Shown: in pieces, positions 1 through 64,000 of the stretch | Position numbering within the stretch: position 1 is the stretch's first letter | Layout: every line of letters starts with the position of its first letter | Assembly (NCBI GenBank): GCA_008632985.1 | Contig: QPGO01000066.1 | Location: forward strand, 327,771-391,770 | Direction of reading: 5' to 3' | Source: Psammoneis japonica | Taxonomy: Eukaryota | DNA: 64,000 bases | Position numbers and translations under genes: made by a program | Notes under the pieces: model-generated | Seen by the model: the letters and a program-made list of their open reading frames with translations, nothing else | What the model was told of the DNA's origin: nothing | Databases searched by the model: none

Positions 1-31
1 CTCAAACGTTTTTCTCATTTTTGTTTCTCAG

Positions 32-285: not shown

Positions 286-725
286 TACTTTGCATATATT
301 CAAGGTAAATCCATAGATAGCTTTCCTAAAGTACACGTACAATAATTATTTTGATAGGCTAGTTCATAGAGCACCTGCGCGGTAACAGGGCTGACTCTAG
401 AACTGAAGAAAGGCAGCGCCTTTGTGAATCCTACGATTCTCCTGGAGGGACTTAGCACTGCTGAAAGGGATCTACTCCAATCGGTGTAGCCACTGGGTAG
501 AGCAATGGCTCCCAGCAACTGACACCTGCAACATTAGCAGCCCCATTCGCCTGAAACACAAGACCACTGCGGCATCCCTTGGAGGCACACAAGTGGGCTG
601 CTGCGGACCGGCAGGGGTCTGAGGAAGTGTGACAGATGGAGTTGCAGTGTCCATGCCTTGCCGTTAGCTCGGCCATTGGCACATCCCCGCACCACCAGTC
701 AAATGGGAAGCACGCAACATCAACC

Positions 726-2254
726 TCAGGCACAGATTTGGGGAACCACCCGCGACAAGTGACAACAAGATGTGTAGTTTGAGCCATGTTTCTGCATGCA
801 ATGCTGGTGTGTCTTGGATGTGCAGCATTGATCCATAGCTCCGCCACAGTCGGTGTGCGGCGCCTGGAACATCGGATTGAGCGAAGATCGTGGCACCAGG
901 TGGAAGGCTGTTGTGGCCGCACACGAGCATGCAATGGTTTCTTGAACCAGCTGCTGGGGGATGCCAAATGCCAACTTCCTCTGTCCCTCTGGCAGCATTT
1001 CGGAGCACGCTCCATGCATTGCAGTGAGACAGTCCGCACCCGTGGCGGCAGAGAGGGAGTTGCAACCGTTGTCGTGGTGCCACAGTCCGTTGAAACTCAC
1101 GAGTCTTCTCATGATCAAGGATGTTGAACGGATCTCGTTGACTGCAGAATTCCCAACCATGCACGCAGCGCATCTGCTGTTTTTGGTCGAGCCTGCGCCA
1201 AGGTGCTTGCTCAGGCACACAACCTCTTGCATCCATTTCTTCTCGTCAATGCCAGTTGCCTTCTCGATTCTCTCCAAGGCAGCTTCAACTGCACTGCAGC
1301 GATTCGAAGTGATGTGGCACTTCCACCTGCATCTGAGAATGTTGAGGCCTTTTGAAAGCCATCCGCCGACTCCTCTCCATGCCGACATGAAGAGGCCCTC
1401 GATTGCCTTGATTGAATGCACTGCAACTGAAGAGGCAAATCCCAAGCCGGGGGCGGGAATGCACACGCCACCATTGCCTGTCGAGGGTGTTCCAAGGATC
1501 TCACAGCGGCAGAATGTTAAGCTGAAGCATGCAATGGCAGCAGATCCAGCTGCTTGGGCAAATTTATCGTGTGCGACGGCGTCAATGGCCGCTGGCATGT
1601 CACGGATGACTGCATGGTCGCAATCGCATGAAAACTTGCCCTTGGATTTGCAGCAGAGGTCACGCATCATGCAAACCCTGTCAACGGCGTTGTCAGGTTC
1701 TGGTTTGTTTAACTCGTCCCCACCATGCCCCAGGCCACACCATTTGCCACACGTGATGAGATCCCCAATCCCGTCGACCCCACCTGCAGGTGGCACCTTG
1801 AAATGGGTTTGTTTGGCAGGGCATGCACTGCTGTCCGGGCCGCCTGAAGCATCTCCAACCGCCACAGCTGCGGCATGCCTGGCCTCACACTGCTCGGGTG
1901 AGAGAGGAAGCACTGCAACCGGTTCGTCCATGGCGTTCGCAGAAATGGCTGGTTCGTCCACGGCGTTTGCAGAACCCTCCGGCAAACCTCTCAAATGGCG
2001 AGCATCGACGGCTGCGAACGAGAAAAAAGAAAATGAACAGGCTTGTCAAAAAGTGCCACATTCGAAAAAAGTCGACTCGCTGCCACTTGGACACCAGTTT
2101 GACGTACATGCAGTGCACTTGCATTTGTGGGCACCTCTTCCACCGAGTCTGAAACGTTGGGAAGCAATGTGAGACGACTCACTGATGGCTTTGCAAATGA
2201 TCCGCAAAGCCCAAAAGCTGCAAGGATGAGTCCTTTCTTCCAAATGAATCTCAT
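726..2254 (-). pseudogene. Secreted phospholipase A2-like gene damaged by TA->TG/CA hypermutation
   Basis: TCGKWCGLGHGG...PDNAVDRVCMMRDLCC...CDC corresponds to the sPLA2 pattern YGKWCGxGYxG...DxxDxCCxxHDxCY, with Y->C/H and catalytic H->R. Signal-peptide-like MRFIWKKGLILAAFGLCGSFA starts at 2254 and there is an acceptor near 2012 before VDARHLRG. Splicing and the true stop are uncertain. Confidence 0.7.
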
Positions 2255-2857
2255 CTTTCAATCGATGTTTTTTTCTCTTTCTCTTCAGTCGTTTTTTCAT
2301 TCTTTGTGTTTTTTTTTATGGCAACTCTTTGTGAACAGCATCTGCTTCTGCAACCAAAGGTGTCACAACAAATGTTTTGGGGCCGGGGTTCTCATTGTCA
2401 AATGTTTGCTTGATGGGATCAAGCGTCGCGCAAATGTGCGACATGATTGGTGAGGAATTCATCATCGTGGTCGTTGTGCCTCGGACGGATGTGTCCAGTG
2501 GCATCCGCACAAATCGCAGATCACTTGCAAATCCTGCGCACACCGCCCCGTGTGTGTGCGCATCACCATGTGTCGCAGAGCATCGAGAGGGCGCGGTGTG
2601 TTAGATGGAGAGAGAGGAGAAGTTGGGGGCAGTGGACTGAAGAAAGAAAACGTGAACACAGGACACTTGTGAGTGCAATGGGAATTGTGTTTAAGATGTG
2701 CAATCACGAATGTGAAAGAATTTAAAAAATTTTCAAAGAAGCGAAATTTAAGATCTTGCCGGTGCCACTGTTGGTCCTTGGGCAGTCGTTTTCTTTGGTG
2801 ATTTGTGGGGATTCGTGACCTGCAGCAGAGGATCAGGATTTGAAAAACCCAATGCTT

Positions 2858-3742
2858 TCATGGCAATGTCGCTAAAGGGAGGACCAGTGAAATAAATCGA
2901 AGTGAGTGCAGGGTTGTTGCAAGCCCAAGCCCTGTCCATTGCATCATTCCACAAACTCCGCCAATGAAATCTGCCACGTGATTGTCAACTGTGCATTTGT
3001 CCAGTGGCAGCAATTTGTCTGGAGGCGCTGGAGTGAAATCAAATGCGGCTGACATGGAAAATTGACCTGGGAATCGACTTTGCTCTTCTTGCATTTCGTT
3101 CAAATGATCCACCAGCAGCTTTCCAAATTTGCGCCTCAATTCATTGGTCGACAGAGGCACAATTCTCAGCCAGCACACACGATGCAAAGTTTTGCCAATC
3201 ATGTCATGTGGAGCAAGATTGGGACAAGGATGGCCGCTTTTGTCACAACGAGTTGCAATCATGCGGAACCCGTTTTTAAAACTCCAGCTGTTTGGGTCTT
3301 TCAGCTCTTCTCGTGCAGTGTTCATGAAGCCATCGGCAGCAGGTGTTTTTTCAACCCAACACAATTCAATGTCACCATGATTGTTTGAGTCGCTTGGAAC
3401 CTGAACAACACAAAGATGAGAGGCTTCACTTGCTTGGATGACACCGACATTGTCAATCTTTTGTTTCTTTGTTAACAAGTTCAGTGCGGTGGGTTCGGCA
3501 GAACGTTTTTGGTGCAGATCATTCTCACTGTCGGTGTTGGCAAAATCATTCATCATTTCCACTGTGGGTTTTGAGTGTCCATGTAAAATGAGATGCAGCT
3601 GTGATTGCCACAAAACATGCACAAGTCTTGTCAAAGGTGTGTCATTCGTGTTGCAAAAGGCAGATCTTGTTGCAGTTGTTTGTTGTGTTGCACGATTCCA
3701 AAGAAATTGTTGAATGTGCAGCTCATCTCGAAGTGTGAGCAT
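2858..3742 (-). pseudogene. Unidentified protein-coding remnant (hypermutated)
   Basis: 294-aa ORF with protein-like composition and no Tyr, divergent from the gene at 4192. No family recognised. Confidence 0.35.
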
Positions 3743-4191
3743 TGCTGGACAAATTGTGTGTTCGCAGCAGCAGACAAAAACAACAGTCCCCGCAAGACAG
3801 GTTGTTCTTTGTTGTTGACATGACAGGAATCACAACATCAATGATTGGATTCTGTGTGTGCTGAAGTCCCACATGTTTGTAAGAATCAACACTTTGATCC
3901 CGCTTGTGCACAACAGTGTTTGCAAGTTTGAAACAGTTGTGTCCCGGAAAAAGCAGTTTTAAAGCAAATTGATTGGTTGTCATCTGGTGTGAGGACAGGA
4001 AGTGCAAGAAAAAACATCGGCAAACAGCACTGGTCAAAAAGCAGCAGACGCAAGTCGTGGAAAGGAAGCAAGACTGAGAAAAAAGGACTTCAAAACAAGA
4101 TTCAAAAATGAAAGTGGCAGTTGTCTCACCTTGCGAGATGACAGTGTCACAATTCGGATGTGTTGTTTGTCAAAAGTCATGAGAGAACACC

Positions 4192-5826
4192 ATGCCTGAC
4201 TTCACTGAATGCTTGTCCGATTCGGCTCCACTTCTTGAGAGGGGGGAAGAGCACAATCTAACATGCGCCATTGGCACCATGACGTCTGGGCACACATTCG
4301 AACGAGATGGAAAGGTGGTCTTGTCAACATTGTTGGGCCTCAAACATGCAGCGCAAGGACAAGGCAGCAAATGTGTTTTGCATTGGAACACTCAATGCTC
4401 AACAAATGGAGCCGCTCGTCAAAGACAAAGTCAATCTGCTCCATGTGATTGCATTTTTTTCTTTGGCGATTTGCGTGATTCGAAGGGTCGATGCTTTGCG
4501 ATCATTTGCACTTCGCCTCGAGACAGCGATCAATTGTTTCGCCATGCAAAAGACAAAGCAGTGGGAGACAGTTTTCTCATTGTGGAGCCTGTCTTCACAA
4601 ACCATCTCTCACCAGGAGCTCCGATGTTGGAAACACGTCATCCGCTCCTGCCACTTAAAAATCCACAATCTCTGTTGCGCGAGATGCCGTTCCATCGTGC
4701 AGATCGGGGTGAGACACGTTTCTTTGCTTTGAAGCACAGAATTGTTGATTTTGTGTCAGCTTCGTCAGCTCAACATGACGCATCTTGTGGCGGAACGTTG
4801 TGCGACCGTCAGAGTGCAATTCCTGTCACCGGTTTGTGTGGTTGTTTCTACAAAGGACCTCCGCATGCAGTCGTCATGCAAGGATCTGTCACAATCTTAA
4901 CTGATCCCACCATTGCTGCATTCTTTAAGATTGTGAGGGAAGAAGACGGCAGTGAAGCAAGTGAAAATGCAAACAACAGCGGCGCGACGGATGGCGACAA
5001 TGAAGAAAACAATCATGGCAACAATGGGGATGACAGACGCGTTCCAGGTCCAGGTGGGACCTCGCACTGCTGAACTGTGACATCGACAGTTTTTTGAATC
5101 TCGTCGCATGTCGCGCATGTAGAATTCCACGTGATTTTTTGATGTTTTGTGTCATTTTACGGTGCACTTGTTGAGCGATCCGTCCAAAAACTTTTGACAT
5201 TTTTTGTTACAGCGCGATTCTACAATGTCTTAAAAATCGCGCAGGGCAGGTGCATTTGCAAAAACATCGAGTGGTGAGAGGCACAATTGCACCACAAACT
5301 TGGCCGTTTGTTTGATGTTGAAGATGAACACATCCATTGGTTAAATTCTCGCACTGCGGAGCTCGCACGTAGAATTCTGCGGGCCAAATGTCACACGGAG
5401 TCCCACCCAGGGCTGGAACGCGTCGACAACAATGACCACAACGAGTTGATTGTTGATGACATTGAAGAAAATCAGGAAGAAAACGACAACGAGAGAGAAG
5501 CAACATGCAACGGCAATCCAGATGGGGTTGATGTGCAAGCGCATGTTCCTGCTCGTCACGACATGTCGAATCGGTTGGCTGTTGTTGACTTTCGGAGTCA
5601 TCGACTGACCCAAGCGGTGTTTCGAAATCCTGTTTCAACGATTGATCCATCGAACTTTAACAGAGGACAATTTCGCACAAGCGTGAAACAGCTGTTTCAG
5701 TGCGTCAACGAACATGGTGGATGGACTGTGATTGCTTGGTTCCGTCAAGGAATGGTTGTGGACATGGGTGGCAACCGAAACGACGATGCTGACGAGACAT
5801 TCAGCGAAACTCAAAAGCTTGCATGA
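4192..5826 (+). pseudogene. Unknown Cys-motif protein (CxGxxCDRQ...CGC; GGWTVIAW) interrupted by a MITE
   Basis: ORFs 4192..5073 and 5287..5826 join in frame (GDD-N-NDHNEL, acidic/Asn linker) when 5036-5424 and one TSD copy are removed. Confidence 0.65.
5036..5424 (+). mobile_element. ~390-bp non-autonomous TIR element (MITE), copy 1
   Basis: Termini GACGCGTTCCAG...CTGGAACGCGTC. 4-bp TSD GACA at 5032-5035 and 5425-5428. Aligns end to end with 31598-31987. Confidence 0.92.
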
Positions 5827-6235
5827 GCTTTTTATTCCCCACTGCTGCCAACATACGAGGTGCAGCATTTCGTGCTCTGCAGCACAGGCAAGGCAACGCC
5901 AACGCACCCATTGTTGTTGACTGAGCAGTGCATCGGAAGATTCATGCAATGCATGATTGTACATCACAATTCTGCAGGTGTGTGTCTCAAAAGAATGACA
6001 GTGAGACATCGTGATGCATGTGCCAGCACAACAAGTCGTGCCCCATTTCATTGCATCGGCGCTCGTTTGGGCAAAGGTGCTGCACCATGCAAAATGTTCG
6101 CCTTTGTTTCATGCACTCTCTCTCTGCGTGCTGGCTAGAGCCCACCCGGAGCCGGCACTGTGTGTGAGACCAGTTGAGACACAGACATTGTTGTGTGTTT
6201 TTTTGTCCATTTTACAGGATTTAGATCTTCAGCCA

Positions 6236-6270
6236 GCCGGTGCAACGGTGCCCGGCACCGTTGCACCGGC
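6236..6270. repeat. Perfect 35-nt palindrome (17-bp arms)
   Basis: gccggtgcaacggtgcc-c-ggcaccgttgcaccggc. Confidence 0.85.
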
Positions 6271-7026
6271 ATTGTCATTTGGGGTTGTCCCATTCGTGGA
6301 ATGACTTGTGCACGACAATTGTGGGAAACAAGTGAGAGGCAGCATTTGTGGTTGTTTTGTTCGTGGAATGACCAATGACAAAAACAATGAGAATCCACGC
6401 AGGACAGGGCACTTGCTTTTGCAGTGCTGCGAATTGCTGAACAATTGTGCGACTCAAGTGCCCGAACGACGATTGTTGCTTCGGGCATGAAATTCGAGCT
6501 TCGCGCACGTAGAAACCATAGAAAATGTGCCAGCATTTGAGAATGTCCGATTTGTGTAGATCACGCAGCACAGCACCACGAGGTCATTTGATGAAATTCC
6601 CTCGACGACTCACACGACCACAATGAGATTTTCAACGCCATGTGCCATGCAGAATGGACATCTGCGTGAAGGGAGAATGTTGCTTCGGGCAATGACATTC
6701 GACCTTCGGGCACGTGAATCGCGCAATTGTCCAGCAATTCGCAGCGTGCAAGGCATGATGCATGTGTGGGACCGATGACTTGTGAGCCAGAAAGATTGTT
6801 GCCTTTGCAGCGAGTCTTTGCTGACATCTGGGACACACGGCATTTTGTCGCATTTGGCGACATTTTCTTAAATGAGTTGATTGTTTGTCGCGAAAAGACG
6901 CGAGCTGCGACAAAATGTCCGGGTTGGCGACAAACGGGACAGAAACATTGTCCAACCAAGTCACAAAATGATCAATGTCATTTACAACTAACCTGCACTT
7001 TGGCGATGTCGTTCAAACAAGTGGGG

Positions 7027-7680
7027 CAATTAACAGAATTTGGCGATCGATGTCATCGACGAAAATTCATCCGACAAAATTTGTCGCACCCGACAAATTT
7101 GTCGGATGTCCGACAAAATTTGTCAGCGTGCGACACGACAAGACACGACACGACAAGACACGACACGACACGACACGACACGTCACGACACGACGACTCA
7201 CGAATGAAACACCCACGCCCCCCACACACGCCAACCGCCAACGTCTCCATTGACACTGCCGGCATGTCTCTTTTGCACGATGATGCAAAGCGACGATCAT
7301 GCCGCTCTCGGCGGTCTCCATGCTCTCGTCAATGCCGGGACAACATGGTGCACTTCTGCACAGTGCAACGGAGTGTGCCGGCATGTGTTGCTGTGCTGTA
7401 CCTTTTGTCAGCACGACTGGGCACTTCTGAATGTTGGGGAGCGTTGCATTGTCGGCATGTCGCAAACGTCCGTCTGTCGGCGTTTGTCGGCTCTTGTCGG
7501 CTCTTGTCGGCGTTTGTCGTACGTTGTCGGGGTTTGTCGGGGTTTGTCGGGGCTTGTCGGGGCTTGTCGGGGTTTGTCGGATACGACAAATTTTGTCGGA
7601 CGTACGACATGTCCGACAAAATTTGTCGTATCCGACAAAATTTGTCGTACGTACGACAAAATCGCCAAAACATTAATTAA
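7027..7680. repeat. Inverted arrays of CGACAAAATTTGTCG near-palindromes with inner (CGACA)n and (TTGTCGG)n short repeats
   Basis: Motif clusters at ~7070-7125 and ~7580-7665. CACGA repeats 7131-7195 and 10-bp xxxTTGTCGG repeats 7475-7580. Outer ends AATTAA...TTTGGCGAT and ATCGCCAAAA...TTAATT are inverted. Confidence 0.8.
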
Positions 7681-8204
7681 TAAGTACAGTCTTCGCCGAA
7701 AGTTAAATTCATCATATAGCACTGTATTTGATATAACGTTTGTGTTTAGGACACGCCATCGCCAATAAAATGATGATTTTGTCTTATTTATCGCCAACGG
7801 TTGAAATTTGTCTCAAAGGGCGTTTTTCACGACAAATCGTCCAATTCATTTATGGGAATGTCGCAATTGGCGACAAAATGCCTGTGTCCCAGAGCAAAAG
7901 TCATTATTTTGACTTGGAAATGACTTATTATGGAATATTCTTTAAGTAATGGTATTATTGAGAATGACTTATTGTAACAGCCTTTTAAGTAATGTGGTTT
8001 GTTATTCAATAACTTATCATAAAAAAACCGAACGTGCCTATAAGTATTAGACATTGTGAAAAGTAGTACGTAAGTTTTGTATGGATCTGTACGGAGTGCG
8101 TATTTTGTGATCACGCTTTGTGCATGTAAAGGGCACTGCTGCATTTTCGCATTTTTGGAGTTATCGGAATCGAAATCGGGATCCGTTTGTTGTTTTAATG
8201 TTGT

Positions 8205-8517
8205 CCCAAGAGCTACTGGCTCGGGCATCGGGCTAGCTTCACTGCTACTTCGGTGGTTTCGGCTACAGTCACTCTGAGTTCTCGCTTTTAAGTGAGATCC
8301 GTTGTGAAGTTGGTCGGAAACAACTGCAAAACTACACACGTATATTGATGCCGGTATCCTAAATCTGTTGTCTTGTTCTAAAGTCGTCCCAAGAGCTACT
8401 GGCTCGGGCATCGGGCTAGCTTCATTGCTACTTCGGTGGTTTCGGCTACAGTCATTCTGTGTTCTTGCTTTTAAGTGAGATCCGTTGTGAAATTGGTCGA
8501 AAACAACTGCAGAACTT
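8205..8517. repeat. Direct duplication (~130 bp conserved, period ~183 bp) upstream of the 8534 gene
   Basis: tcccaagagctactggctcgggcatcgggctagcttca...aacaactgca occurs at ~8205 and ~8387. Confidence 0.85.
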
Positions 8518-8533
8518 TCTAAGATTTTCAGAA

Positions 8534-11500
8534 ATGGGTATACCTAGCATTCCATGGTACGGCGACGCTCCGAGGCCTCGATGGCCATCGGAACAACAAC
8601 CGGATTTAGTATTTGAGAAACCGAAAGCACCGTTCAAGTTCAAACCCGAGAACGTAAAACGATATGGATTACTTTCCAAAAAATGGAAGACGGAATCTGT
8701 CAACAGATTAGAGGTATCGGAAGCTGGGGCTTATACATTATGGGACGGACACAGTAAACCACACTGCCAAAATCCTCGTTCTGATCGTGGGAAGCTAAAC
8801 AAACTGGCAAAAGAAAAAGGTGTTCCTATCAATAGAATAAAAGGGACGTACATTGACCCTGGCGAGTTTGTGCACATTGACCATGAAAGCGATTATTGGC
8901 GTGATTGTTTTGCACCCCATTTGTCCAAGTTGGATATCAAGGGATTGGTTGACGACATATTGAAGTCTCATTCAGAAGATACTGGTGACCGTTTAAGAGG
9001 CAATGTCACTACAGGCGGTGGATATGCTTCACAAAACATACGGTTGAATGAAGAAGGAGTAACAGAACCTCAAGTCACTAAGGGGCTTAGGAAAGAGCAC
9101 GTAGAAACAATGTGTTGCATGTCTGACATACTTTATGATTGGGTAAAAGCTACTCCCGGATGGGACGAAGTACCGTTTACTGCAGACAAAAGGCGCAACG
9201 ATTACTTTGCTTCCAAACTTTGCGATAAATTTGGTCTCAACCGTATCAACAAGAACGGCAAGCAGGCACAACTGTTTGAGCACTTTACACTGGCTATGAC
9301 TTCGTTGGACGAGTTAGATCCTATTACCAAACTGGCTATATTGCTCGGATGCCATGTAGACGACTTGAATTGTAGGAAACAAAACTACAACGCTCTTATG
9401 TGTATATACTTTCATGTGTGCATTGATGGTGAGTTGTTACTATATTCTGTCTTTCATTTTTAATTCGTGCAATATACATGCTCTAACGTCGTTATTGAAT
9501 TATTTTCTATCAGGCAAATGGTATCGAATTTGTCTGATCGGATATAGTCGTCGTTGCTGCTCCGACTACTTCACTCGTTTAGCTGGCAGTGACGAATTTC
9601 TTCACCAGATGTTGAACTTCTTCCACTCCTTGCCCGAAGAGTATCGCCAAATCAATGCACGTTTCTTGCTACCATCACGTTCTGTTGGGGTTCACCATCC
9701 TTTCCCCAACATGAACAAAATGGTGTGGCACTCGGCCTTCGCCTCTGCCATACTGTGCGTGCTACGGTCTTGTCCAATCTCCATGGAGCAAGCTTGTGAG
9801 TTGCTCTTGCCAGTGGGATGGTTGACCACCCCCATTCAGATGTACGAAGTGTATAAAGGATGGGCGAAGAATGGTCTTCCCACCACCGGCAATCTCACCA
9901 AGGTGATCATCGATGAATGCGTGCGCCGTTATGGTGGGTTACTGCATGGCGACGGCAGTCGCTTGCAGCCAGCATTCAATTGCTCTACTACAGACGTGGC
10001 GATATATCGTGCATTGTTTACTCTTCTTCAATCTATTCGCAAGTCTAACGCTGGGGAGTTAGATTACGAAGGAGTAATCAAGCTTCTGACGCACCATGAC
10101 AAGAAGAATAACGTTCCAAATGTGATTGGTGTGAGGGATATTGGTGCACAGCATCTGGTTGCAGTCGGCAGCATTGTAGCCATGTACGAGGATGCAACGT
10201 TGGTGGAGCAAGCTCGGGTGTGTTCATCCACACGCACGTATAAGGTTGTCAACGAGACATTCGGAATTAGAGCTCCCGTGGTAAACGAATGTTACAAGAA
10301 GTTTGCTCGACTCACTGGTACAAATACAGCAGTGTCGGAGAATGTTGCTTGTGAACAACTCAGAACTTTGGGTGAAAATATAGACGGTGTGACGTCCGAG
10401 CTTGTCAAGAGTGGCATTTCTCAACGGATGCAGAAGAATGGCCACTGTTATCGACCCGACACTGTTCACCATGATCAATCGATCTTCGAAATTGAAAACG
10501 GCATTAGGATGGAATCCTTCAAGAAGTATCATTCGAATGAAGGAGAGGAGCACGATCTGGTGCGTCAGCCAATGGAACTTCCTCAATACAAGGTCAACAA
10601 GAGACTTGATATAGATTGTCCCTGGGTGCTGGGAAAGTTTGCATCCCTGAAACCAGTGGAAGTAAAAACTTCCGAAACATCCGTCCTCCCAGAAGATCGC
10701 AAGAAGAACGGTACTAGAAAGAAGAAGAGTGCCAAATTCAACAAAAACAGTCACTCTGGCATAGGAAGAAACTACGCATGGGAAGCAGCTCTTCGAGAAA
10801 AGATAGACAAGAATTCCAAGCTTGACTTTGAGATCACTAAATGTGAAGAGAATGATCGACCTTACTACACCAGCGTCAGTGAAGATCTCAAGTTAACGTT
10901 GACTCTCAGCAGACGAAGCGTGACTCGGAACTCGACGCGTCCCGACTTGGAAAGTATATTTGGAGCCAACCAATCAGACGGCACCTATCGAACAATAGAA
11001 TTGGCGAAATTGGCCATGACTAGTCTTGGTGCAGTAGCTTCTCGGAAAAGGAAAAGAGGGAAACGCCAATTGGTCCATTTTACAACCAATGAACAATTTG
11101 GTCGGGATCCTATTTTTACTGCCACTTTTAATTCTGTGCAACAAGTGCTTTTGCGGAAGAACTACCACGATTGCATTTTGCCATTGGAAGGACTGGTGGC
11201 ATATGAGAGAGATGTCGCGTTCTACCAGACACGTGCACAAGCCGAAGCCGCTGTCCTTCTGAAAGCTATCTTGTATCACACGTTAGGAACTAAGACGCGT
11301 TCGGAAACAAAGACAGATCCAAAATGGGCTATAGATTTTCTACCAGATTCAAGAATGAATGCTTTGGGTAGAGATTTTGTCGTGTTGCACACATGCACTA
11401 GTGCGGGTCATGGTAAAAACTCAAGAGCAGCAAATACATTGCTTGGTGTGCTATTCTTTCGAGGCGGATGCCGGATTTTGTCTATTCCTACCGACAAAAT

Positions 11501-11546
11501 GGATTTGAAAAGGATGTGGCAAGACTACTGTTTACAAAAGTTATAG
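8534..11546 (+). CDS. Intact two-exon ~975-aa protein (8534-9428, 9514-11546); candidate DNA base-modification enzyme with a TET/JBP-like 2OG-Fe motif set and an HhH/aG/PT-pyrophosphorylase-like region
   Basis: Intron 9429-9513 (GTGAGT...CTAAC...CAG) joins two long ORFs in frame. Motifs: CHVDDLN (HxDxxN), RICLIGYSR, VIGVRDIGAQHL and SENVACE. The gene model is well supported; the functional call is tentative. Confidence 0.6.
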
Positions 11547-11694
11547 TTGAAGTATGTAACCACCAGTAAATACTTGCCAATGGTTGAGCATTCAATGTTA
11601 TTGTATCGCTAACAATTGTTTCCGTATCCACAGGAATTGTCGTACAACTGCCTTTATAATGTGGCAAAATTGCAAGCTGGGGAAGGAATCGACA

Positions 11695-46665: not shown

Positions 46666-46694
46666 CCACTCATGGCGCCAGCTGATTGACACCG

Positions 46695-47810: not shown

Positions 47811-47839
47811 AGTTGGGGCTCACCGAAGGTGCCATTCAG

Positions 47840-55600: not shown

Positions 55601-58600
55601 AGTCGCCTCCATTCCCTCGTCATCTACCGCCACAACAGTCACCACGTTGGTGTGGGTCTCATCCGCATCCAAGTTCAGTGGTCGGGAGAAGGAGAACGTA
55701 AAGGAATCGCCAAAGTCCAAAATGATTTGGCCACCATACGCTGCCTCTGCCTCGGGCAACAAATCATCAAACTTGTCATCGGTCAATGAAGTGACTGTGA
55801 GACGGTCCGTCTCCACGCTGTCGTTGGTAATGGTGATGGAATAAGTGGCAGTATCGCCGCCCTCGTTAATCGTCGCATTGCCATCCTTCACGATCGAAAT
55901 CGCAGGAGCCACATTCTTTCCCCTCACCGTGTGATCATCGGTGGCAGTCGCCGTCGTTCCCTCGTCATCATTCGCCACAACAGTCACCACGTTGGTGTGG
56001 GTCTCATCCGCATCCAAGTTCAGTGGTCGGGAGAAGGAGAACGTAAAGGAATCGCCAAAGTCCAAAATGATTTGGCCACCATACGCTGCCTCTGCCTCGG
56101 GCAACAAATCATCAAACTTGTCATCGGTCAATGAAGTGACTGTGAGACGGTCCGTCTCCACGCTGTCGTTGGTAATGGTGATGGAATAAGTGGCAGTGTC
56201 GCCGCCCTCGTTAATCGTCGCATTGCCGTCCTTCACGATCGCAATTTCGGGAGCCACATTATCCGCCCCCACCGTGTGTGTATCGTCGGCAGTCGCCGTC
56301 GCTTCCTCGTCATCTTTCGCCACAACAGTGACCACGTTGGTGTGGGTCTCACCCACATCCAAAGTCAAATCCCTATCGAAGGTGAAGAAAAAGGATTCGC
56401 CGGGGTTCAAAGTAATTATTTGGTCACCGTTCGCTGCCTCTGCCTCGGGCAACAAATTACCGAACTTGTCATCGTCCAATGATAAGATCGTCAGACGATC
56501 TGTGTCTCCGCTGTCGTTGGTAATGTTGATGGAGTAAGTGGCAGTATCGCCGCCCTCGTTAATCGTCGCATTGCCATCCTTCACGATCGAAATCGCAGGA
56601 GCCACATTCTTTCCCCTCACCGTGTGATCATCGTTGTCAGTCGCCTCCATTCCCTCGTCATCTACCGCCACAACAGTCACCACGTTGGTGTGGGTCTCAT
56701 CCGCATCCAAGTTCAGTGGTCGGGAGAAGGAGAACGTAAAGGAATCGCCAAAGTCCAAAATGATTTGGCCACCATACGCTGCCTCTGCCTCGGGCAACAA
56801 ATCATCAAACTTGTCATCGGTCAATGAAGTGACTGTGAGACGGTCCGTCTCCACGCTGTCGTTGGTAATGGTGATGGAATAAGTGGCAGTATCGCCGCCC
56901 TCGTTAATCGTCGCATTGCCGTCCTTCACGATCGCAATTTCGGGAGCCACATTATCCGCCCCCACCGTGTGTGTATCGTCGGCAGTCGCCGTCGCTTCCT
57001 CGTCATCTTTCGCCACAACAGTGACCACGTTGGTGTGGGTCTCACCCACATCCAAAGTCAAATCCCTATCGAAGGTGAAGAAAAAGGATTCGCCAGGGTT
57101 CAAAGTAATTATTTGGTCACCGTTCGCTGCTTCTGCCTCGGGCAACAAATTACCGAACTTGTCATCGTCCAATGATAAGATCGTCAGAGGATCTGTGTCT
57201 CCGCTGTCGTTGGTAATGTTGATGGAGTAAGTGGCAGTATCGCCGCCCTCGTTAATCGTCGCATTGCCATCCTTCACGATCGAAATCGCAGGAGCCACAT
57301 TCTTTCCCCTCACCGTGTGATCATCGTTGTCAGTCGCCTCCATTCCCTCGTCATCTACCGCCACAACAGTCACCACGTTGGTGTGGGTCTCATCCGCATC
57401 CAAGTTCAGTGGTCGGGAGAAGGAGAAGGAGAAGGAATCGCCAGGGCTCAAAGTAATTGGACCACCGTTCTCTGCCTGAGCCTCGGGCAACAAATCACCA
57501 AACTGGTCATCGTCCAATGATGTGATCGTCAGAGGATCCGTCTCCACGCTGTCGTTGGTTATGGTGATGGAGTAAGTGGCAGTATCGCCGCCCTCGTTAA
57601 TCGTCGCATTGCCATCCTTCACGATCGAAATCGCAGGAGCCACATTATCCGCCCCCACCGTGTGTGTATCGTCGGCAGTCGCCGTCGCTCCCTCGTCATC
57701 TTCCGCCACAACAGTGACCACGTTGGTGTGGGTCTCACCCACATTCAAAGTCAAATCCCTATCGAAGAAGAAGGAGAAGGATTCGCCAGGGTTCAAAGTA
57801 ATTATTTGGTCACCGTTCGCTGCCTCTGCCTCGGGCAACAAATTACCGAACTTGTCATCGTCCAATGATTTGATCGTCAGAGGATCTTTGTCTCCGCTGT
57901 CGTTGGTAATGATGATGTCGTAAGTGGCAGTATCGCCGCCCTCGTTAATCGTAGTCGGGCCGTCCTTGACGATCGAAATCGCAGGATCCACATCAACCGC
58001 CGTCACCATGTGATCATCGTCGGCAGTCGCCGTCGTTCCCTCGTCATCTACCGCCACAACAGTCACCACGTTGGTGTGGTCATCGCCCACATTCAAAGTC
58101 AAATCCCTATCGAAGGAGAAGGAGAAGGATTCGCCAGGGTTCAAAGTAATTGGACCACCGTTCGCATCCTCTGCCGCGTCCAACAAATCACCAAACTTGT
58201 CATCGGTCAATGAAGTGACTGTGATAGGATCCGTCCCTTCGCTGTTGTTGGTGATTTCGATGGAGTAAGTGGCAGTATCGCCGCCCTCGTTAATCGTAGA
58301 CGGGCCGTCCTTCACGATTGCAATTTTGGGAGCCACATCAACCGCCCCCACCGTGTGATCATCGTTGTCAGTCGCCTCCGTTCCCTCGTCATCTACCGCC
58401 ACAACAGTCACCACGTTGGTGTGGACATCGCCCACATTCAAAGTCAAATCCCCATCGAAGTTAAAGGAGAAGGATTCGCCAGGGTTCAAAGTAATTGGAC
58501 CACCGTTCGCATCCTCTGCCGCGTTCAACAAATCACCAAACTTGTCATCGATCAACGAAGTAATGGTCAAGGCGACGTTTCCCGTGTTGCTAATACTAAT

Positions 58601-61412
58601 GTCGTAAGTGGCGGTGTTAACGCCCTCGTCAATCGTAGCCGGGCCGCTCTTGTCAATGGAAACCCCCGGCGCACTTGCCGCCGCCACCGTTACCGTTGCA
58701 GTATCACTAGCGGTAAGCCCTTCTCCAGTCGCCGTCGCTGTATTAATCACAGTTCCCTCCGTGTCTAGTTGGACAATCTTTTCAAAGGTCGCGGTTTCAC
58801 TGACAGCCAGCGAGGTGGATGTGACGACCTCAAAGTCATCCGCCGTGTTAGCAGGAGTGCCGTTGTCGTCCGTAATATCAAGATTAGACAGTTCGGCCGT
58901 TCCAGGATTCGAGACCGTGTAACAATACTTGACGAAATCTCCGGCTGTAACATCAAGCGACTCTACGGCGTCAGCGCAATCTCCGTTTTCCGTAGTGACC
59001 TTCTTTTCGATTTCCAAGAGAGGCTCTCCAACTGATTCAACAGTTGTAGTCTCTTGATCCGTGTCGTTGTCGGAATTAGTATCATCGGAAATGGTCGTCA
59101 CTGTGACCGAGTTGACGATTTCTTCTCCAGTAAAAGCTGCATCCACTGTCACGGTAATCGTGTACTCGACACTTTCTCCGGCGGTGAGGGCGCCGACATT
59201 CCACTGGACAGCCCCATCTGTGTCGATATAAACCCCCCCATCGGAAGCACTCACAAAGTCCACGTTCGGATCCAATACATCATAGACAACCACTTCATTT
59301 GCAATTGAAGGTCCAAGGTTGGTGGCGGTGATTGTGTAGGTCAGTGTTCCTCCAGGTTGAACGGGGTCGGGGTCATCCGTCTTGGTTACTGCCAGGTCGA
59401 CCTGTGCATTGAAGAAATCACCAGGTTTCAAAAGTGGAACAACTTGGTTACCTGTGGAAATCGAATCACCATTCACCAACGTGATTGTTCCACTATTCGC
59501 GACATTGATTGTTTGATCACTGCCCGTTGCAGCATCAATCAAACGTGACTGGACATTTCCACCAATACCTTGGGGAATCGTATCATCCAAGACCAGCCAT
59601 GTCTCCATTACCACCTCGTCGCCATCATCAAGTCCAGAGATAGTGAACACACCCACTATTTCATCATTGATGACTGACCAGGTAAAAGAATCCACGGTTG
59701 CGTCATTACCTGCATCCACGTAAACACCATCACTTGTATCGATGAAGGATCCAAAAACACCATAACCAGTATCATCGGCTCTGGCATCATATCCAAAGTC
59801 ACCCGAGTTCGTCGTTAACGTGTTCCAACCAATAACTACGGTAATGACTCCACTTTCGGGCGCGGTGTCACCTGAAACCGAGATCTTAGTTTCAAAAGGA
59901 ACAATCTGACCCAACGCCATGTCCTGCGGCGCGAGACTTTCGACCCTGACATCAGAAGAGCCATCGTTAAAGTTGGCCGATGGAATCAAAGAGGAACCAT
60001 CTCCCCTCCCAGTTGGAGCAGTGAGATCAGTAGGGTAGGGAACGGCGGGGATGTAGATGGTCGGATCTGCGGCAGCAAAATTCAAGGTGTAGGCACCGCC
60101 CTCCAATCCTCTACTGCCGTGTAAGCCATCCTCCTGTTATCAACAAGACGCCGCGAAAGAACGATCGTGATTGAGATTTCATAGAAACAATTGTCGAAAC
60201 ACAAAAAAAGTCCAACACGTATCTTACCTGTGGCTTGCCCTCATGGCGCAGTCCATCATGACGAGTCGCCGCCGAGGCCAGACGCTGCGCAAAGTCTCCT
60301 TGTTTCTTTTCATTGTCCTCCACAATGAAGGTACTAGCACCTCCACCTTCGTCTCCACCGCCGCGGAGGTGATGAGGGATCAAGCTTGTCGTCTTGAAGA
60401 CCTACGATATCCGAGAGAGAAGCGCATGGTTGTGATATATGCAGGAGACTGTCGTCAGCAACAAATAGCGACACGGATTGCCCAACTTACCTCCAGTCCA
60501 TCACGCGCCTCCTCCTGCTTCTGACCGGCGTTCGCCTGAAACTGAAAGACAATAAAGTGTTGGCATAGTATGGAAGAGGCAATGCAACAAAGGAGAATGG
60601 ATAGAGCGACGCATTCATGGTGTACTATGGTGCATGGTGAGATCGAAAAAAAAAAAAAAATCGAGGTCAACGCACGAGGTCCAAAATGTGCGAGCTCGAG
60701 GAAACAATGATCTCGACACGATCGATCGGACTGCATAGGGCCTACCGGTACACCGTATTGGTGAAGGTCAGACAACGTCAACCGAACGGGCACGTATCAC
60801 GAGTGCACACAGACAATGACACAGTGGTCGTAGAATCATCCGCGATGACGTCACGGTGACGGATGAGAAGCCATCGTGTCAACAGGAACTATCTTGGACT
60901 CGTTCGATTAAGAAAGTTCCAAACGGCCCATGGCGTTCGACGACGGAAACGCCTCTTGTATGGACGTTGTGAATGCCAGATGCGTCAGCCATTCATGATT
61001 TGGAAGATATGGACATAGTATCATGCAATAGGGTAATGTAGTGGCGATATACACGTACGACAACAAAGAACGACGAAGTATCATACAGGGTTCTTGACAG
61101 TTGATCTACCACGCAAAACTGGGGAAAACAGGGGAAAACGACAAGTTTGACAACGTGCAAAGCCACCAGAACGCTAATGAAGCGTTCGGGTGCCATCATA
61201 CAAGAGCAATAGGGCAGAACGGTGAAAAGTACAGGGTGATCGGGCTGCTCCCCCTTGCCCCCCATGCACCAAACTGTGAAAAAGTGAAAAAACATCAGTT
61301 TAAACGATGCGCAGTGCCACGAATCACTTACCATAAGATCTCCATGCACCGAGGTGCATGAAAGGAGGTCAATGAGCGCCAAAGCGCTAAATGCCGTAGT
61401 CGCTTTTATCAT
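52631..61412 (-). CDS. Giant (>2500 aa) secreted acidic adhesin-like protein with DUF11/Ig-like domains and 11 tandem ~115-aa repeats
   Basis: 7.5-kb final exon 52631-60133. In-frame introns 60134-60227 and 60402-60490. Probable signal-peptide exon 61412-61332 (MIKATTAFSALALIDLLSCTSVHG, GTAAGT donor), but this link is tentative. DUF11 pattern DLAVTKTDDPDPVQPGGTLTYTITATNLGPS. C-terminal RRRLR. Confidence 0.85.
54870..58670 (-). repeat. Coding tandem array of 11 x ~345-bp units with A/B higher-order alternation
   Basis: The unit PxIxIVKDGxxTINEGGDTATYxIxITN...HTNVVTVVAxDDE recurs. Central units are nearly identical at DNA level. Confidence 0.92.
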
Positions 61413-61856
61413 GGGAAGTCGTATCGTATCGTAGTTTGTGTTGTACTGTGTGTGTTTTATTATTTTGTGAGCGCATCGTTCTGCGATCTTTTTTGAAATT
61501 TTGGTGATTGGTTTCGTACAATTCTACGTACCCACAGTATCATCGGTAATTCAGTACCGTTTGTCACGAAAGTGAGATCTGCCGAGGTTTGCATTGAAAT
61601 CCTCGTAGATTCTACGTGAATTTTATACCATGGGACAAATTGGGTCATCCCCAAAGATGTTTCTCCGACAAAAATGGGACGAGGCTTCGGGAGACAAGTA
61701 ATATTTTCTTAACGCGATATTGCCCATCGTGCGAAGAGGCTTCTGGCGACATACGTTTTTCCAAATGATGTTGTTAATTAGAAAAACAGGAGACAAATGT
61801 CGACGTGGACATGTTTAACGCTAAATTGCCCAGAGTGTCATGGAGAAATGCCTGGC

Positions 61857-62060
61857 ATGTCACGGATGTTTCTCCGAAAAGTCATTCAATGTAGAATGGA
61901 CACCACAACAATGCAATAAATGTTTTCCAACATCGAACAAACAGTGAGTCTACTCGTGAATGTCACGGATGATTTTCCGAAAAGTCAATGTAGGATGGAC
62001 ACCACAACAATGCAATAAATGTTTTCCAACATCGAACAAACAGTGAGTCTACTCGTGAAA
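61857..62060. repeat. Tandem duplication of ~100 bp
   Basis: tgtcacggatg...ccgaaaagtca...ggacaccacaacaatgcaataaatgttttccaacatcgaacaaacagtgagtctactcgtgaa x2. Confidence 0.85.
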
Positions 62061-62359
62061 TTTCTCGACAACGTCATTTGGGCAGGATGGACACCAAACA
62101 ACACACACAATGGACATTTCATTCACTGCCCGCACAGCTGCAAAAACAAACAGCAATGGTGTGAAACAGCAACCCATGTCAGGAGTGCACCATTGTCGTC
62201 GACAGAGCAGCAAAGTTCACTGTGCAAACGCTCTCTGCCGGTGATGTCGACAATGCGAAAAGAGGAGAGTGTTGTGTCATCAGTGGCAGAGGATCCCTCA
62301 CAGCCTGAAAGAGATTTCTGTGTGCATGTGGCGGGGGCGATGCTGCTGCTGCTGAGAGC

Positions 62360-62624
62360 NNNNNNNNNNNNNNNNNNNNNNNNNNNNNNNNNNNNNNNNN
62401 NNNNNNNNNNNNNNNNNNNNNNNNNNNNNNNNNNNNNNNNNNNNNNNNNNNNNNNNNNNNNNNNNNNNNNNNNNNNNNNNNNNNNNNNNNNNNNNNNNNN
62501 NNNNNNNNNNNNNNNNNNNNNNNNNNNNNNNNNNNNNNNNNNNNNNNNNNNNNNNNNNNNNNNNNNNNNNNNNNNNNNNNNNNNNNNNNNNNNNNNNNNN
62601 NNNNNNNNNNNNNNNNNNNNNNNN
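62360..62624. other. Assembly gap
   Basis: Run of N. Confidence 0.99.
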
Positions 62625-64000
62625 CTGGCCATCTCACTTGCTGCCCGTGAAGTCAATGCAGCATTGGAGTGAAACCCCATTGCAGCCAATTCAATGGGAG
62701 GAGGTGCAAAGGCAAAAGAGGCAACGGCGTTGCCTGGCTCATCTGACTGTGCATGAGTCCAAGATGCGCACTGGCGTGTCAAAATTTCCGTTGTTGTGGC
62801 CAGCCGGTTTTGTCTTGCATTGCCAATTGCTTGATGCAAGCCCCATTTGCCAGCATGCAGACAGCCAATCTTGCACATCAAATCATGGCACAATGTTGCA
62901 TGTTGACTCGCAAGCTGGCTTGTGCAAAACACAGTCTTGTCACCTGCCACGTGTTGCTGCCACAACGTTGCCCACCACAATGGCTTCTCTCTCTTGCTTC
63001 CTTTGCAACACAAACAATGTCTCTTTTCTTTGCCATCACAAATGACTGTCCTGTGTGTGGCAAACATTTGCTCCCAACTGGTCTTCAACATCACCTCAGA
63101 ACTCTCACTTGCCTTGCAAATGCTTTTTCAGTCAATGAGTCAAAGGACGATTGTGGCAAACCACCGCCAACAGCAGAACCCAAAGAACCTGGCAACGCCA
63201 CTCCCTCCTCTGCCATCCCCCCTCCCTCCATCAAATTTAATGCCATGGGTTCTCACTCCAACACCGGGTCCACTCCACAAGTTGCAGTGCAACACAATCC
63301 CCGTCCATTGAGATCCACTCGTGAAGTGGCCCCAGTGTGAGATCTGACAGGATTTGAACAAGATTTTAGTTTGTCACACACAATTGTGTGTGCTTTTAGT
63401 TTCACGTGCGATGCAGTTTGCTTTCAAAAACAACAGCCACAGTGCCGACATCATGACGCCAGTCTTTCGGCTCCTGCAACGGTCTCTGCACGGAAACTCA
63501 TCTGCCATTTGGATGGCAGTGAGGAGCCATTGTTTTCTTCCACCCAGTCATCTTCATTTTCTGTCAGATTGACAGTCTTGGCCAATGTCCACCCATTGAG
63601 CCATCATCATTGTCATCGAGAAAATCAACAACGTGCACCAATGGCGGCGGAAGCATGTGCCTGCCACCTTCACTGCTGGGTGTTGGATTGGATGTGTGCG
63701 CTTGGATCTGTCCAATGCATCCAATCGCTGGACATGTTCATTCAACGGACATTTGTTTGGTCAGGAATTTTCGCATTCTCAGGCATCTGAGATTCTGGAT
63801 TCCTTGCAGCGGATTCCACTCCTGTTGGCAGATGGACAGACCCCATCTGCACACGTTGGCGCACACACGAGACACTGCCACCCAACTCTGGCCCTGCTCC
63901 ATGCAAGCCAAGTCTGCTGCCACCCATCTGCACTGGATTGCTGGTCTTCTGCAGTTCTCCAGCCTGCATTGGGGTGAGGGTGCTTTTCCCACATCTGTTC

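Follow-up and report, generated by a model that had tools for sequence, protein, structure and literature searches.

The 64-kb window, by which we mean the whole stretch of DNA that was analysed, consists of five blocks almost devoid of TpA set among segments of ordinary TpA content (Table 1). Delimited by a two-state Poisson segmentation in 100-bp bins, the blocks range from 1.9 to 19.2 kb and together cover 43.8 kb of transposon-rich DNA, about two thirds of the window, in which 182 TpA were observed against 2867 expected (observed/expected, o/e, 0.04-0.10). Per kilobase, TpA o/e is 0.00-0.17 at 1-7, 13-31, 32-37, 41-51 and 62-64 kb, and the o/e of TG and CA in these low-TpA windows is mostly 1.4-2.1 (full range 1.23-2.71). 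Chance is ruled out, since the local normal level would give about 37 TA per kb and there are 0-5. Block edges are sharp to about 100 bp, with partly mutated shoulders, and stop-to-stop open reading frames (ORFs) inside the blocks have nearly no tyrosine (one of 1368 aa has no Tyr, 74 Cys and 54 His; one of 883 aa has a single Tyr). The depletion is thus real and extreme, as a preliminary description of this DNA had claimed, and our limits agree with those given there to within a few hundred bases.

Two of the TpA-normal segments carry host-type genes. The named relatives of the Cys-rich DUF7640 gene are all diatoms (Thalassiosira pseudonana, Cyclotella cryptica and Stauroneis constricta), and both this gene and the DUF11-repeat gene have a TpA o/e of about 0.5. 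On the strength of this one gene family and one ESM Atlas lead, the window appears to come from a diatom; exact look-ups with three of its ORFs returned nothing. The suggestion that TpA-normal segments are host gene islands holds for these two genes, but not for 7.5-12.4 kb. In Logan contigs from three runs of one sample, which is probably the source of the assembly, that segment is multi-copy (contig depth 100-375 versus 58), and it carries the intact GIY-YIG end of a transposable element; a homolog search with its 725-aa orphan ORF (9369-11543, plus strand) found none.

The relics affected in the blocks comprise a DNA transposon (Helitron-like), MITEs and a retroelement (RVT_2-like). A Pfam search of 22 ORFs in block 1 returned no family, and a 752-aa ORF in block 3 (35276-37531, minus strand) has a weak RING-finger match under the Pfam cut-off. 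Block 4 probably consists of LTR-retrotransposon relics, and its repeats are also present at 23.2-24.5 kb. The peptide strings on which the preliminary description was built are all in place: CLAKH at 15154-15168, FAAFACN at 15978-15998 and CGKWCGLGH at 1734-1751 on the minus strand, and ALCRLK at 48521-48538 and CWEC at 48659-48670 on the plus strand. The copia reading of the last two gains a lead from the ESM Atlas, where the nearest clusters to the surrounding ORF carry RVT_2 (score 0.94, Bacillariophyta), but Pfam finds no Ty1/copia RVT_2 (PF07727) in the window at E<=10. A secreted phospholipase A2 reading around CGKWCGLGH was not borne out, with no Pfam family and no PDB sequence matching at E<=10.

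Table 1. Features of the window, with TpA counts as observed/expected (obs/exp)
Feature	Positions	Strand	Observations
TpA-normal segments	1-700, 7501-12400, 31601-32000, 37501-41200, 51601-62100		TpA o/e 0.49-0.75
TpA-depleted block 1	701-7500		TA 45/437; o/e 0.10; CpG o/e 0.85
MITE-like copy	5036-5424	+	terminal inverted repeats; about half of TpA gone; 7 TA
TpA-normal, multi-copy segment	7501-12400		o/e 0.65; contains 725-aa ORF and the element's GIY-YIG end
Helitron-like Rep / PIF1 helicase / GIY-YIG coding region	11749-19421	-	located by tblastn; few frame breaks
TpA-depleted block 2	12401-31600		TA 65/1291; o/e 0.05; CpG o/e 0.53; partly mutated shoulder 12.4-14 kb
MITE-like, older copy	23768-24166	-	TpA all lost; 0 TA
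MITE-like, young insertion nested in depleted DNA	31598-31987	-	ordinary TpA; 19 TA
TpA-depleted block 3	32001-37500		TA 30/353; o/e 0.085
Host gene island, TpA-normal	37501-41200		Cys-rich DUF7640 gene 38365-39609 (+)
TpA-depleted block 4	41201-51600		TA 39/702; o/e 0.056; CpG o/e 0.29
Candidate copia-type reverse transcriptase relic	48257-48991	+	no Tyr
TpA-normal island	51601-62100		2429-aa ATG-to-stop ORF 52634-59920 (-), DUF11/DUF7507 repeats
TpA-depleted block 5	62101-64000		TA 3/84; o/e 0.036; includes assembly gap 62360-62624

The Helitron-like element was delimited with 153 homologs, whose 243 tblastn HSPs all lie on the minus strand and span the coding region given in Table 1; Pfam places PIF1 within 12349-14997 and GIY-YIG within 11698-12345. 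The C-terminal GIY-YIG domain is unusual. Pfam Helitron_like_N matches neither the window nor four intact homologs, and the homolog sequences contain an HIH motif and a Y-x-x-K-Y motif that may be a Rep site. About 7 kb of the element, above 12.4 kb, is hypermutated and the part below is TpA-intact. A single HSP of one homolog (P0029) crosses this edge, starting at 14709 and ending at 11905, which places the edge inside one colinear reading frame; the edge could instead have arisen where a mutated copy recombined homologously with an unmutated one, or where the assembly switched between two such copies.

Conserved columns, defined by agreement of at least 70% among 10 or more homologs, reveal the direction of change. 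In the depleted part, all eight conserved Tyr columns now read Cys (TGY, four) or His (CAY, four), and other conserved residues are retained at 67-100% (Cys 16/16, His 14/15, Trp 15/15, Arg 22/22, Gly 32/33), the exception being Ile (1/2). In the TpA-normal GIY-YIG end, conserved Tyr is kept at both of its columns. Changes affect 30 of 269 conserved sites; they include 11 single-step TA losses, two other A>G, one C>T and no G>A, so that TA losses make up 11 of the 14 single-step transitions. Tyr content, with a median of 3.1% in the 153 homologs, is 0-0.1% in the window ORFs and 4.2% in the TpA-intact end of the same ORF. The proposed replacements EYQ to ECQ (site 15788) and YLAKY to CLAKH (sites 15168 and 15156) hold against real homologs, and Thr to Ala after T-ending codons explains three of 12 conserved Thr. 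The preliminary description had named equally TpA-free active relatives as grounds for abandoning its claim. All 65 metagenome loci encoding relatives have a TpA o/e of 0.46-0.90, with no 1-kb window below 0.24, so TpA loss is not a trait of the element family. However, the further idea that Tyr-dependent enzymes are the target does not follow from Tyr loss, which is a by-product, because TAY codons contain TpA.

The three MITE-like copies and the contigs point in the same direction. Between the 31.6-kb and 5-kb copies there are 32 differences, 12 of which are TA in the former and TG or CA in the latter, with none in reverse. Where the intact copy has its 19 TA, the 24-kb copy has TG or CA at 13 (10 TG, 3 CA) and other dinucleotides at six. 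Because five of the 19 sites carry both TG and CA among the depleted copies, a TA ancestor is required. The summed contig depth of the 5-kb copy is 35,000-89,000. Among 40 contig variant places listed, 21 set TA in the window against TG or CA, and one is the reverse; among the 22 listed within 9373-11202, other versions from run X1 have TG or CA at 19. Together with the homolog columns, these comparisons support the central claim of the preliminary description, that TA was converted to TG or CA regionally, on transposon DNA, and that host-type genes kept ordinary TpA.

The composition of the blocks accords with conversion of TA to TG and CA. From normal to depleted DNA, TA falls from 3.78 to 0.42 and CG from 6.12 to 3.17, and TG+CA rises from 15.3 to 21.1, so that the gain in TG+CA about matches the combined loss of TA and CG, the YpR total is conserved (24.7% in depleted versus 25.2% in normal DNA) and G+C is slightly up. 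Across 63 windows, TpA o/e correlates negatively with TG+CA o/e (Spearman rho -0.86) and positively with CpG o/e (rho 0.78). As neither AA o/e (1.27 in depleted versus 1.19 in normal DNA) nor AG o/e (0.90 versus 0.85) is lowered, the specificity is for TpA alone. Both strands are used equally and locally independently: runs tests detect no clustering of TG and CA outcomes, whose scatter is close to the binomial expectation (variance 1.1-1.4 at 200-1000 bp, no higher than in normal DNA). Blocks 2, 4 and 5 have a CpG o/e of 0.29-0.53, versus 0.92-1.14 in the three large segments of normal TpA, part of this depletion being arithmetic because conversion of TA raises G+C and hence the expected CpG; the ratio is 0.64 in segment 1-700 and 1.39 in the young MITE. 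CpG decay of the methylation type co-occurs in blocks 2, 4 and 5 and does not explain the loss of TpA, and block 1 may have no real CpG loss.

We regard it as likely that the window records in-place, TpA-specific A:T to G:C hypermutation of silenced, transposon-rich nuclear DNA, with a deaminase as the probable agent. The A of 5'-TpA-3' is changed to G on either strand, yielding TG or CA until TpA is nearly exhausted, and roughly 1 kb of flanking DNA is spared along with the host genes. The enzyme would deaminate adenine in DNA, leaving hypoxanthine to be read as G, and may be guided by heterochromatin-like, 5mC-marked domains rather than by particular sequences. Its action may be episodic; the process is not continuous, because the young MITE and the 7.5-12.4-kb segment lie untouched within or beside depleted DNA.

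The alternative that fares best, though we consider it unlikely, dispenses with a deaminase and invokes error-prone repair synthesis in heterochromatin, for example by a Pol-eta-like polymerase placing G opposite T at WA. The somatic-hypermutation literature describes an error context for Pol eta that favours A to G where T precedes A, which fits, and the CpG poverty of depleted blocks suggests frequent repair of deaminated 5mC. However, WA includes ApA, which is not lowered here, and block 1 has lost its TpA with hardly any CpG loss. Far less probable is that double-stranded transposon RNA was edited A-to-I by an ADAR-like enzyme and the edited copies were then reverse transcribed and integrated. 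ADARs do favour a 5' U, according to the available text of a recent preprint (Mettrop et al. 2026, bioRxiv 10.64898/2026.01.13.699255), and one block has a probable copia reverse transcriptase relic, but the Helitron-like DNA transposon, the MITEs and unclassified low-copy DNA are depleted equally, blocks span different elements, one edge falls inside an element, and the neighbouring sites 15156 (His) and 15168 (Cys) show that both strands were affected.

We give an equally small chance to a sequencing or base-calling artefact, in which a modified base at heterochromatic TpA is misread as G or C. The three runs share one sample, with library types and platform off record, and the agreement of run X1 with the window is not independent confirmation because X1 was probably sequenced from the sample behind the assembly. 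Nevertheless, contigs of both X1 and X2 agree with the window, X1 repeating its depleted sequence (one 9153-bp contig matches 1-4599 apart from seven letters, at a word depth of 58.3, the lowest level), TA and TG/CA versions of one and the same sequence both occur within the one sample, and TpA reads normally in the MITE nested within a depleted block. Additionally, P0032, a homolog found in an unrelated ENA assembly, has the same Tyr to Cys/His pattern, and the changes reported in the preprint's available text arose de novo in Illumina-sequenced lines (10.64898/2026.01.13.699255). That the elements never had TpA, or that TpA was selected against, would suit the raw depletion alone and is refuted by the replacement of conserved Tyr (8/8) and the ordinary relatives (65/65), with the Tyr-bearing intact end of the same ORF also against it.

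In-place hypermutation resembles repeat-induced point mutation (RIP) of ascomycete fungi in that dinucleotide-specific transitions riddle transposons, form sharp compositional blocks and destroy coding capacity. RIP itself is ruled out by its opposite polarity: it is a C to T process, mainly CpA to TpA, which makes TpA and lowers G+C, whereas here TpA falls to an o/e of 0.05 and G+C rises slightly. RIP also depends on duplicated DNA and on passage through a sexual cycle, whereas the window has a depleted block at the lowest depth level. Deamination of 5mC at CpG likewise feeds TG and CA and is a second process in blocks 2, 4 and 5, but it is unable to remove TpA.

Deamination on or against selfish nucleic acids, as proposed here, has parallels in ADAR (A-to-I on double-stranded RNA), ADAT2/3 and TadA (tRNA A34) and APOBEC enzymes. 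The preference of ADAR, ADAT and TadA for U or T 5' of the edited A resembles the TpA context of the window, and the tRNA A34 target comes after the conserved U33. In contrast, the deaminase proposed for the window must act on chromosomal DNA in situ, and APOBECs alter C, not A. Literature searches found no biochemically characterised natural DNA adenine deaminase for genome defence.

The preliminary description knew of no system with this signature, but the preprint cited above, in its available text, reports the same one. In mutation-accumulation lines of Bigelowiella natans, NCLDV and virophage DNA integrated in the genome undergoes TpA to TpG/CpA hypermutation: 230 of 231 mutations in hypermutable regions are A to G or T to C, all of these on TpA, at a rate about 1000-fold over background and in some lineages only, with an ADAT2 homologue proposed as candidate (10.64898/2026.01.13.699255). 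As far as that text goes, the two cases share A to G and T to C changes only at TpA on both strands, TpA loss coupled to CpA+TpG gain in clustered 1-kb windows, apparently episodic activity and restriction to foreign or selfish DNA with the rest of the genome ordinary, although here one transposon segment (7.5-12.4 kb) is ordinary too; TpA-poor clusters of B. natans are also enriched for transposon domains, as our blocks hold transposon relics. They differ in host, B. natans being a chlorarachniophyte (Rhizaria) and the relatives of our host-type gene diatoms, and in extent, the B. natans viral region being partly depleted (Rho TpA 0.45) with clusters from 3 kb, whereas our blocks reach 19 kb at 0.04-0.10. 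Direct rate measurements belong to B. natans; the window offers only indirect hints at a comparable rate and intermittent activity, namely that conserved non-Tyr residues are retained at 67-100% (Ile 1/2) although TpA is about 95% gone, and that the young MITE is untouched. Because the available preprint text does not contain the words diatom, stramenopile or trinucleotide, and treats methylation in general terms only, the CpG co-decay, edge anatomy and flank bias are new relative to that text.

The window is thus a new instance of a very recently described TpA hypermutation, which here has reached saturation, is directed at transposons and coincides in location with CpG decay. Our searches of the literature turned up no earlier case of TpA hypermutation in diatoms, and this genome-defence-like signature has otherwise been reported in one other alga only. 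More tentatively, and leaning on balance somewhat against it, we raise the possibility that diatoms and chlorarachniophytes share an old, dedicated TpA-deaminase defence guided by 5mC or heterochromatin, and that the wider SAR group may share it too. If so, these algae would erase every TpA from transposons and integrated viruses, and so remove all their Tyr codons and TAA or TAG stops, in an A:T-directed mirror image of fungal RIP that operates alongside cytosine methylation.

TpA depletion in the window far exceeds chance, with 182 TA dinucleotides in five blocks totalling 43.8 kb against 2,867 predicted by base composition, and the signature is most likely that of in-place, TpA-specific A:T to G:C hypermutation of silenced selfish DNA. 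Per-kilobase dinucleotide counts give TpA observed/expected ratios (o/e) of 0.00-0.17 at 1-7, 13-31, 32-37, 41-51 and 62-64 kb, and in these depleted kilobases TG and CA o/e are mostly 1.4-2.1 (overall 1.23-2.71). Block limits were set by two-state Poisson segmentation in 100-bp bins, with per-block TpA o/e of 0.036 to 0.103, and 0.49-0.75 in the remaining 20.2 kb of the window. The near-absence of TpA reported in the preliminary description is borne out, its coordinates being off by a few hundred bases at most. Block edges are sharp to ~100 bp, and several carry shoulders with partial mutation (12.4-14, 5-7.5 and 50-51.6 kb). Block 5 contains an assembly gap (265 N at 62360-62624), and a tandem array of ~274-bp units (28729-30138; 2-3 copies, 80-84% matches) lies within the deepest TpA-free DNA.

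TpA-depleted blocks and the two TA-bearing MITE-like copies, by position in the window
Feature	Position	State	TA count	CpG o/e
Block 1	701-7500	TpA-depleted		0.85
Block 2	12401-31600	TpA-depleted		0.53
Block 3	32001-37500	TpA-depleted		0.69
Block 4	41201-51600	TpA-depleted		0.29
Block 5	62101-64000	TpA-depleted		0.49
MITE-like copy	31598-31987	intact	19	
MITE-like copy	5036-5424		7	

Three independent lines agree that TA is the ancestral state: Tyr columns conserved among homologs, copies of a MITE-like element, and contig variants from the same sample. The earlier reading of a directional, targeted mutator is supported. The first line comes from a Helitron-like element on the minus strand (19421 down to 11749) that encodes a ~2,500-aa protein combining a PIF1 helicase with a GIY-YIG domain at the C-terminus. 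Among columns with 70% or higher agreement across no fewer than 10 homologs, every conserved Tyr in the depleted part is changed (8/8), four to Cys (TGY) and four to His (CAY); the motif changes first noticed in the sequence, EYQ to ECQ (site 15788) and YLAKY to CLAKH (sites 15168 and 15156), are among them. Other conserved residues are kept (C 16/16, H 14/15, W 15/15, R 22/22, G 32/33, P 30/32), and the Thr-to-Ala change that had also been proposed is seen at 3 of 12 conserved Thr, matching the expectation of ACN becoming GCN after a T. Codon by codon, changes affect 30 of 269 conserved sites: single-step TA losses explain 11, other A>G explain 2, C>T explains 1 and G>A none, with 6 transversions and 10 multi-step changes making up the rest. 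Tyr content in 153 homologs of the element has a median of 3.1% (range 0.99-4.89); two ORFs in the window have 0 Tyr in 1,368 aa and 1 in 883 aa.

The MITE-like element, ~390 bp long with terminal inverted repeats, is present in four copies in the window, the two older of which retain 0 TA. The copies at 31.6 and 5 kb have 32 differences, 12 of them TA at 31.6 kb and TG/CA at 5 kb, with 0 in reverse. At 5 of 19 TA sites the depleted copies differ among themselves, some having TG and others CA, a split that requires a TA ancestor. The intact copy sits nested in fully depleted DNA, and thus the activity at that place is not continuous. Because summed contig depth over the element is 35,000-89,000 versus 58 for low-copy DNA, it may exist in hundreds of copies or more. 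It would be well suited to a polarised mutation spectrum.

Logan contigs of the sequencing run X1 supply the third line. Compared with window positions 1-20000 they show 147 A>G, 133 T>C, 107 C>T, 112 G>A and 39 transversions. Among 40 variant places listed (506 further), 21 have TA in the window versus TG/CA and 1 the reverse; of those listed within 9373-11202, 19 of 22 have TA in the window. A 725-aa open frame at 9369-11543 (+) has ordinary Tyr content and belongs to a multi-copy segment whose other versions are TpA-stripped; searches for homologs and Pfam families both came up empty for it.

The dinucleotide balance points to more than one contributor. YpR content is conserved, at 24.7% in depleted and 25.2% in ordinary DNA, while from ordinary to depleted DNA TA falls from 3.78% to 0.42%, CG falls from 6.12% to 3.17% and TG+CA rises from 15.3% to 21.1%. 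Thus, two transition processes feed TG/CA. TpA loss extends throughout the blocks and CpG loss varies in degree; outside the blocks CpG o/e ranges over 0.92-1.14 for the three large ordinary segments and is 0.64 at 1-700 and 1.39 in the 400-bp MITE. TpA and CpG o/e are correlated (rho 0.78, 63 windows), in part arithmetically, as conversion of TA raises G+C and hence expected CpG. The CpG o/e values of 0.3-0.5 nevertheless represent real loss and suggest DNA that is silenced and carries cytosine methylation.

TG and CA occur at equal frequency and scatter locally in a binomial-like manner, with no clustering in runs tests. Adjacent polarised sites alternate strands (15156 to His, 15168 to Cys). 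Dispersion and alternation together give no sign of long single-strand bursts, and strand-coordinated tracts of the kataegis type are ruled out by the binomial-like TG/CA counts and flat runs tests. The surviving TA are not random. TTAA survivors occur in every block and account for 52 of 192 residual TA and, within the deepest 20 kb, for 13 of 34; ATAT (1) and GTAT (0) are almost extinct. A one-strand multiplicative model in which TA followed by T/C is the better target roughly fits the sixteen contexts, positions -2 and +1 not being separable in the flank bias of survivors. Contig variants show no more than a trend for the 3' neighbour (TAY 16/21 versus 58% background, p=0.07), a weaker signal than that of the survivors.

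The simplest chemistry, which we propose, would be conversion of A to G via hypoxanthine. In the substrates that ADAT and TadA enzymes naturally act on, a U precedes the edited A. We ranked four rival explanations by seriousness, and the first is that Pol-eta-like error-prone repair made the changes; ApA is not depleted in the blocks (AA o/e 1.27 versus 1.19), which counts against a WA motif. Second comes editing at the RNA stage with subsequent reverse transcription; it is excluded, as DNA transposons are also affected (besides a probable copia RT relic, the blocks hold MITEs and the Helitron-like DNA transposon), both strands are used and one edge falls inside an element. That edge, at 12.4 kb, falls within a reading frame that is colinear across it; one HSP to P0029, a relative of the Helitron-like protein, spans 14709 to 11905. 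Beyond the edge, in the GIY-YIG end, both conserved Tyr are kept (2/2) and overall Tyr content is 4.2%. An edge inside a reading frame favours a process that works on chromosomal DNA and depends on position over editing of a mobile intermediate, and it may also stem from exchange or an assembly switch between mutated and unmutated copies. Additionally, 4 kb of depleted DNA occurs at the lowest contig depth seen (58.3), and thus present-day repetition is not obviously required.

Third in rank, a base-calling artefact is unlikely. In its favour, the platforms are not on record and the two runs, X1 and X2, probably come from the assembly's own sample; against it, a single sample contains both TA and TG/CA versions, the two runs agree, and the same pattern occurs in a different data set. 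The last point concerns P0032, a relative from an ENA assembly that is 37% identical to the window and has Cys/His at 11 of 16 conserved Tyr columns at the protein level; compared with P0033 (61% identical to it) it has Cys/His at 17 of 32 Tyr positions. Judged from these protein comparisons, P0032 seems to be a second, partly hypermutated copy, and thus the same process seems to have struck another copy in nature. Native composition, the weakest rival, is refuted by the replacement of all eight conserved Tyr columns and by the ordinary TpA content of all 65 related loci.

Those loci come from a search of metagenomes with an alignment of the protein's helicase part. TpA o/e is 0.46-0.90 in 65 of 65 loci encoding relatives, the lowest 1-kb window is not below 0.24, and TpA depletion is not a property of the element family; equally TpA-free relatives, which the preliminary description had named as a possible counter-result, did not appear among them. 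A representative library contains 2,142 relatives at E<=0.001 and 266 at E<=1e-30, and among the 150 best-scoring many are 2,400-2,800 aa long, with shorter partial entries. The family (2,400-3,100 aa) is widespread in marine metagenomes (P0031, P0034, P0035 and P0180 are examples) and is ordered as an N-terminal ~1,600-2,000 aa without a Pfam match, PIF1 helicase and GIY-YIG, with an Ulp1 protease in some members. HIH and Y-x-x-K-Y motifs are present, Helitron-like, and Helitron_like_N has no match in the family, which looks like an unclassified Rep/Hel transposon group. None of the 65 metagenome loci has a counterpart of the orphan ORFs at 7.8-11.5 kb or of those at 32.9-34.0 and 35.3-37.5 kb.

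Elsewhere in the window, a proposed copia element remains a lead: an ORF at 48257-48991 scores 0.94 to RVT_2 clusters in the Atlas, the nearest clusters being from Bacillariophyta, and is a probable RT relic, though it has no Pfam match. A proposed sPLA2 is unsupported, with Pfam and PDB sequence searches negative. These two claims and the two ordinary host-gene islands carry no weight in the hypermutation case. For a host-type DUF7640 gene, the only named relatives come from the diatoms Thalassiosira pseudonana, Cyclotella cryptica and Stauroneis constricta. P0026, a EukProt entry under the name Alexandrium tamarense, shares a 90% cluster with a protein of Thalassiosira pseudonana and is probably diatom contamination of the Alexandrium tamarense transcriptome. 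Three window proteins have no exact match in a collection of 15 billion proteins. An ORF of ordinary TpA content at 52634-59920 (-), 2,429 aa from ATG to stop and 2,501 aa stop to stop, comprises 10.7 tandem 345-bp units with DUF11/DUF7507 domains. The Atlas clusters closest to it are bacterial or archaeal, and this eukaryotic genome may have acquired it from bacteria as a surface protein.

TpA-free DNA is a trap for gene prediction. The window has 167 ORFs of at least 110 aa, and many long ORFs in TpA-free DNA, on both strands, are spurious (for example, 15588-19691 (-)), because TGA is the only stop left there. Transposon domains in such DNA are also hidden from profile searches: 130 ORFs of depleted DNA searched against Pfam gave no TE domain and no other credible domain, the sole matches being five weak, sub-threshold ones (zf_Hakai, TMEM239, UBM, zf-RING_5 and zf-C5HC2).

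To our knowledge, the known mutational genome defences (RIP, APOBEC and 5mC decay) all target cytosine. Fungal RIP is a functional analogue of opposite chemistry (C to T, making TpA), and CpG decay is a companion process in the window. The preliminary claim that no system with this signature had been described has been overtaken by a preprint on Bigelowiella natans, which reports the same signature (Mettrop et al., bioRxiv 10.64898/2026.01.13.699255, 2026-04-14). Of 302 nuclear point mutations in 15 mutation-accumulation lines, two integrated viral regions account for 231; 230 of these were A to G or T to C, all 230 on TpA, at ~1,000-fold the background rate and in some lines only. The B. natans genome has 124 clusters of TpA-poor, CpA+TpG-rich 1-kb windows, transposon domains are enriched among TpA-poor coding sequences, and the authors name an ADAT2 homologue as candidate enzyme. 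The preprint makes no mention of diatoms, stramenopiles or trinucleotide context. The window does not seem to come from B. natans, as the named DUF7640 relatives are diatoms and the Atlas clusters nearest to the RT-like ORF are Bacillariophyta. Full-text literature, in a coverage with few subscription journals, yielded only this preprint for TpA to TpG/CpA change, and nothing for diatoms, a SPLASH paper that came up being unrelated.

An adenine-directed, dinucleotide-specific process, first reported in 2026 from one alga in a preprint, has in the window what appears to be a second, distant algal lineage, where, set beside what that preprint describes, it is at saturation and acts on transposons. 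The saturated end state in an apparent diatom means that the process is probably not one species' peculiarity, and that it hits ordinary transposons besides viral inserts. The edges, shoulders, CpG co-decay, flank bias and strand independence are not in print, and any mechanism must account for sharp edges with shoulders, strand independence, CpG co-decay and TTAA-rich survivors. A natural DNA adenine deaminase acting on chromosomal TpA, if real, would be relevant to base editing, and the question is now testable in a group with transformable model species.
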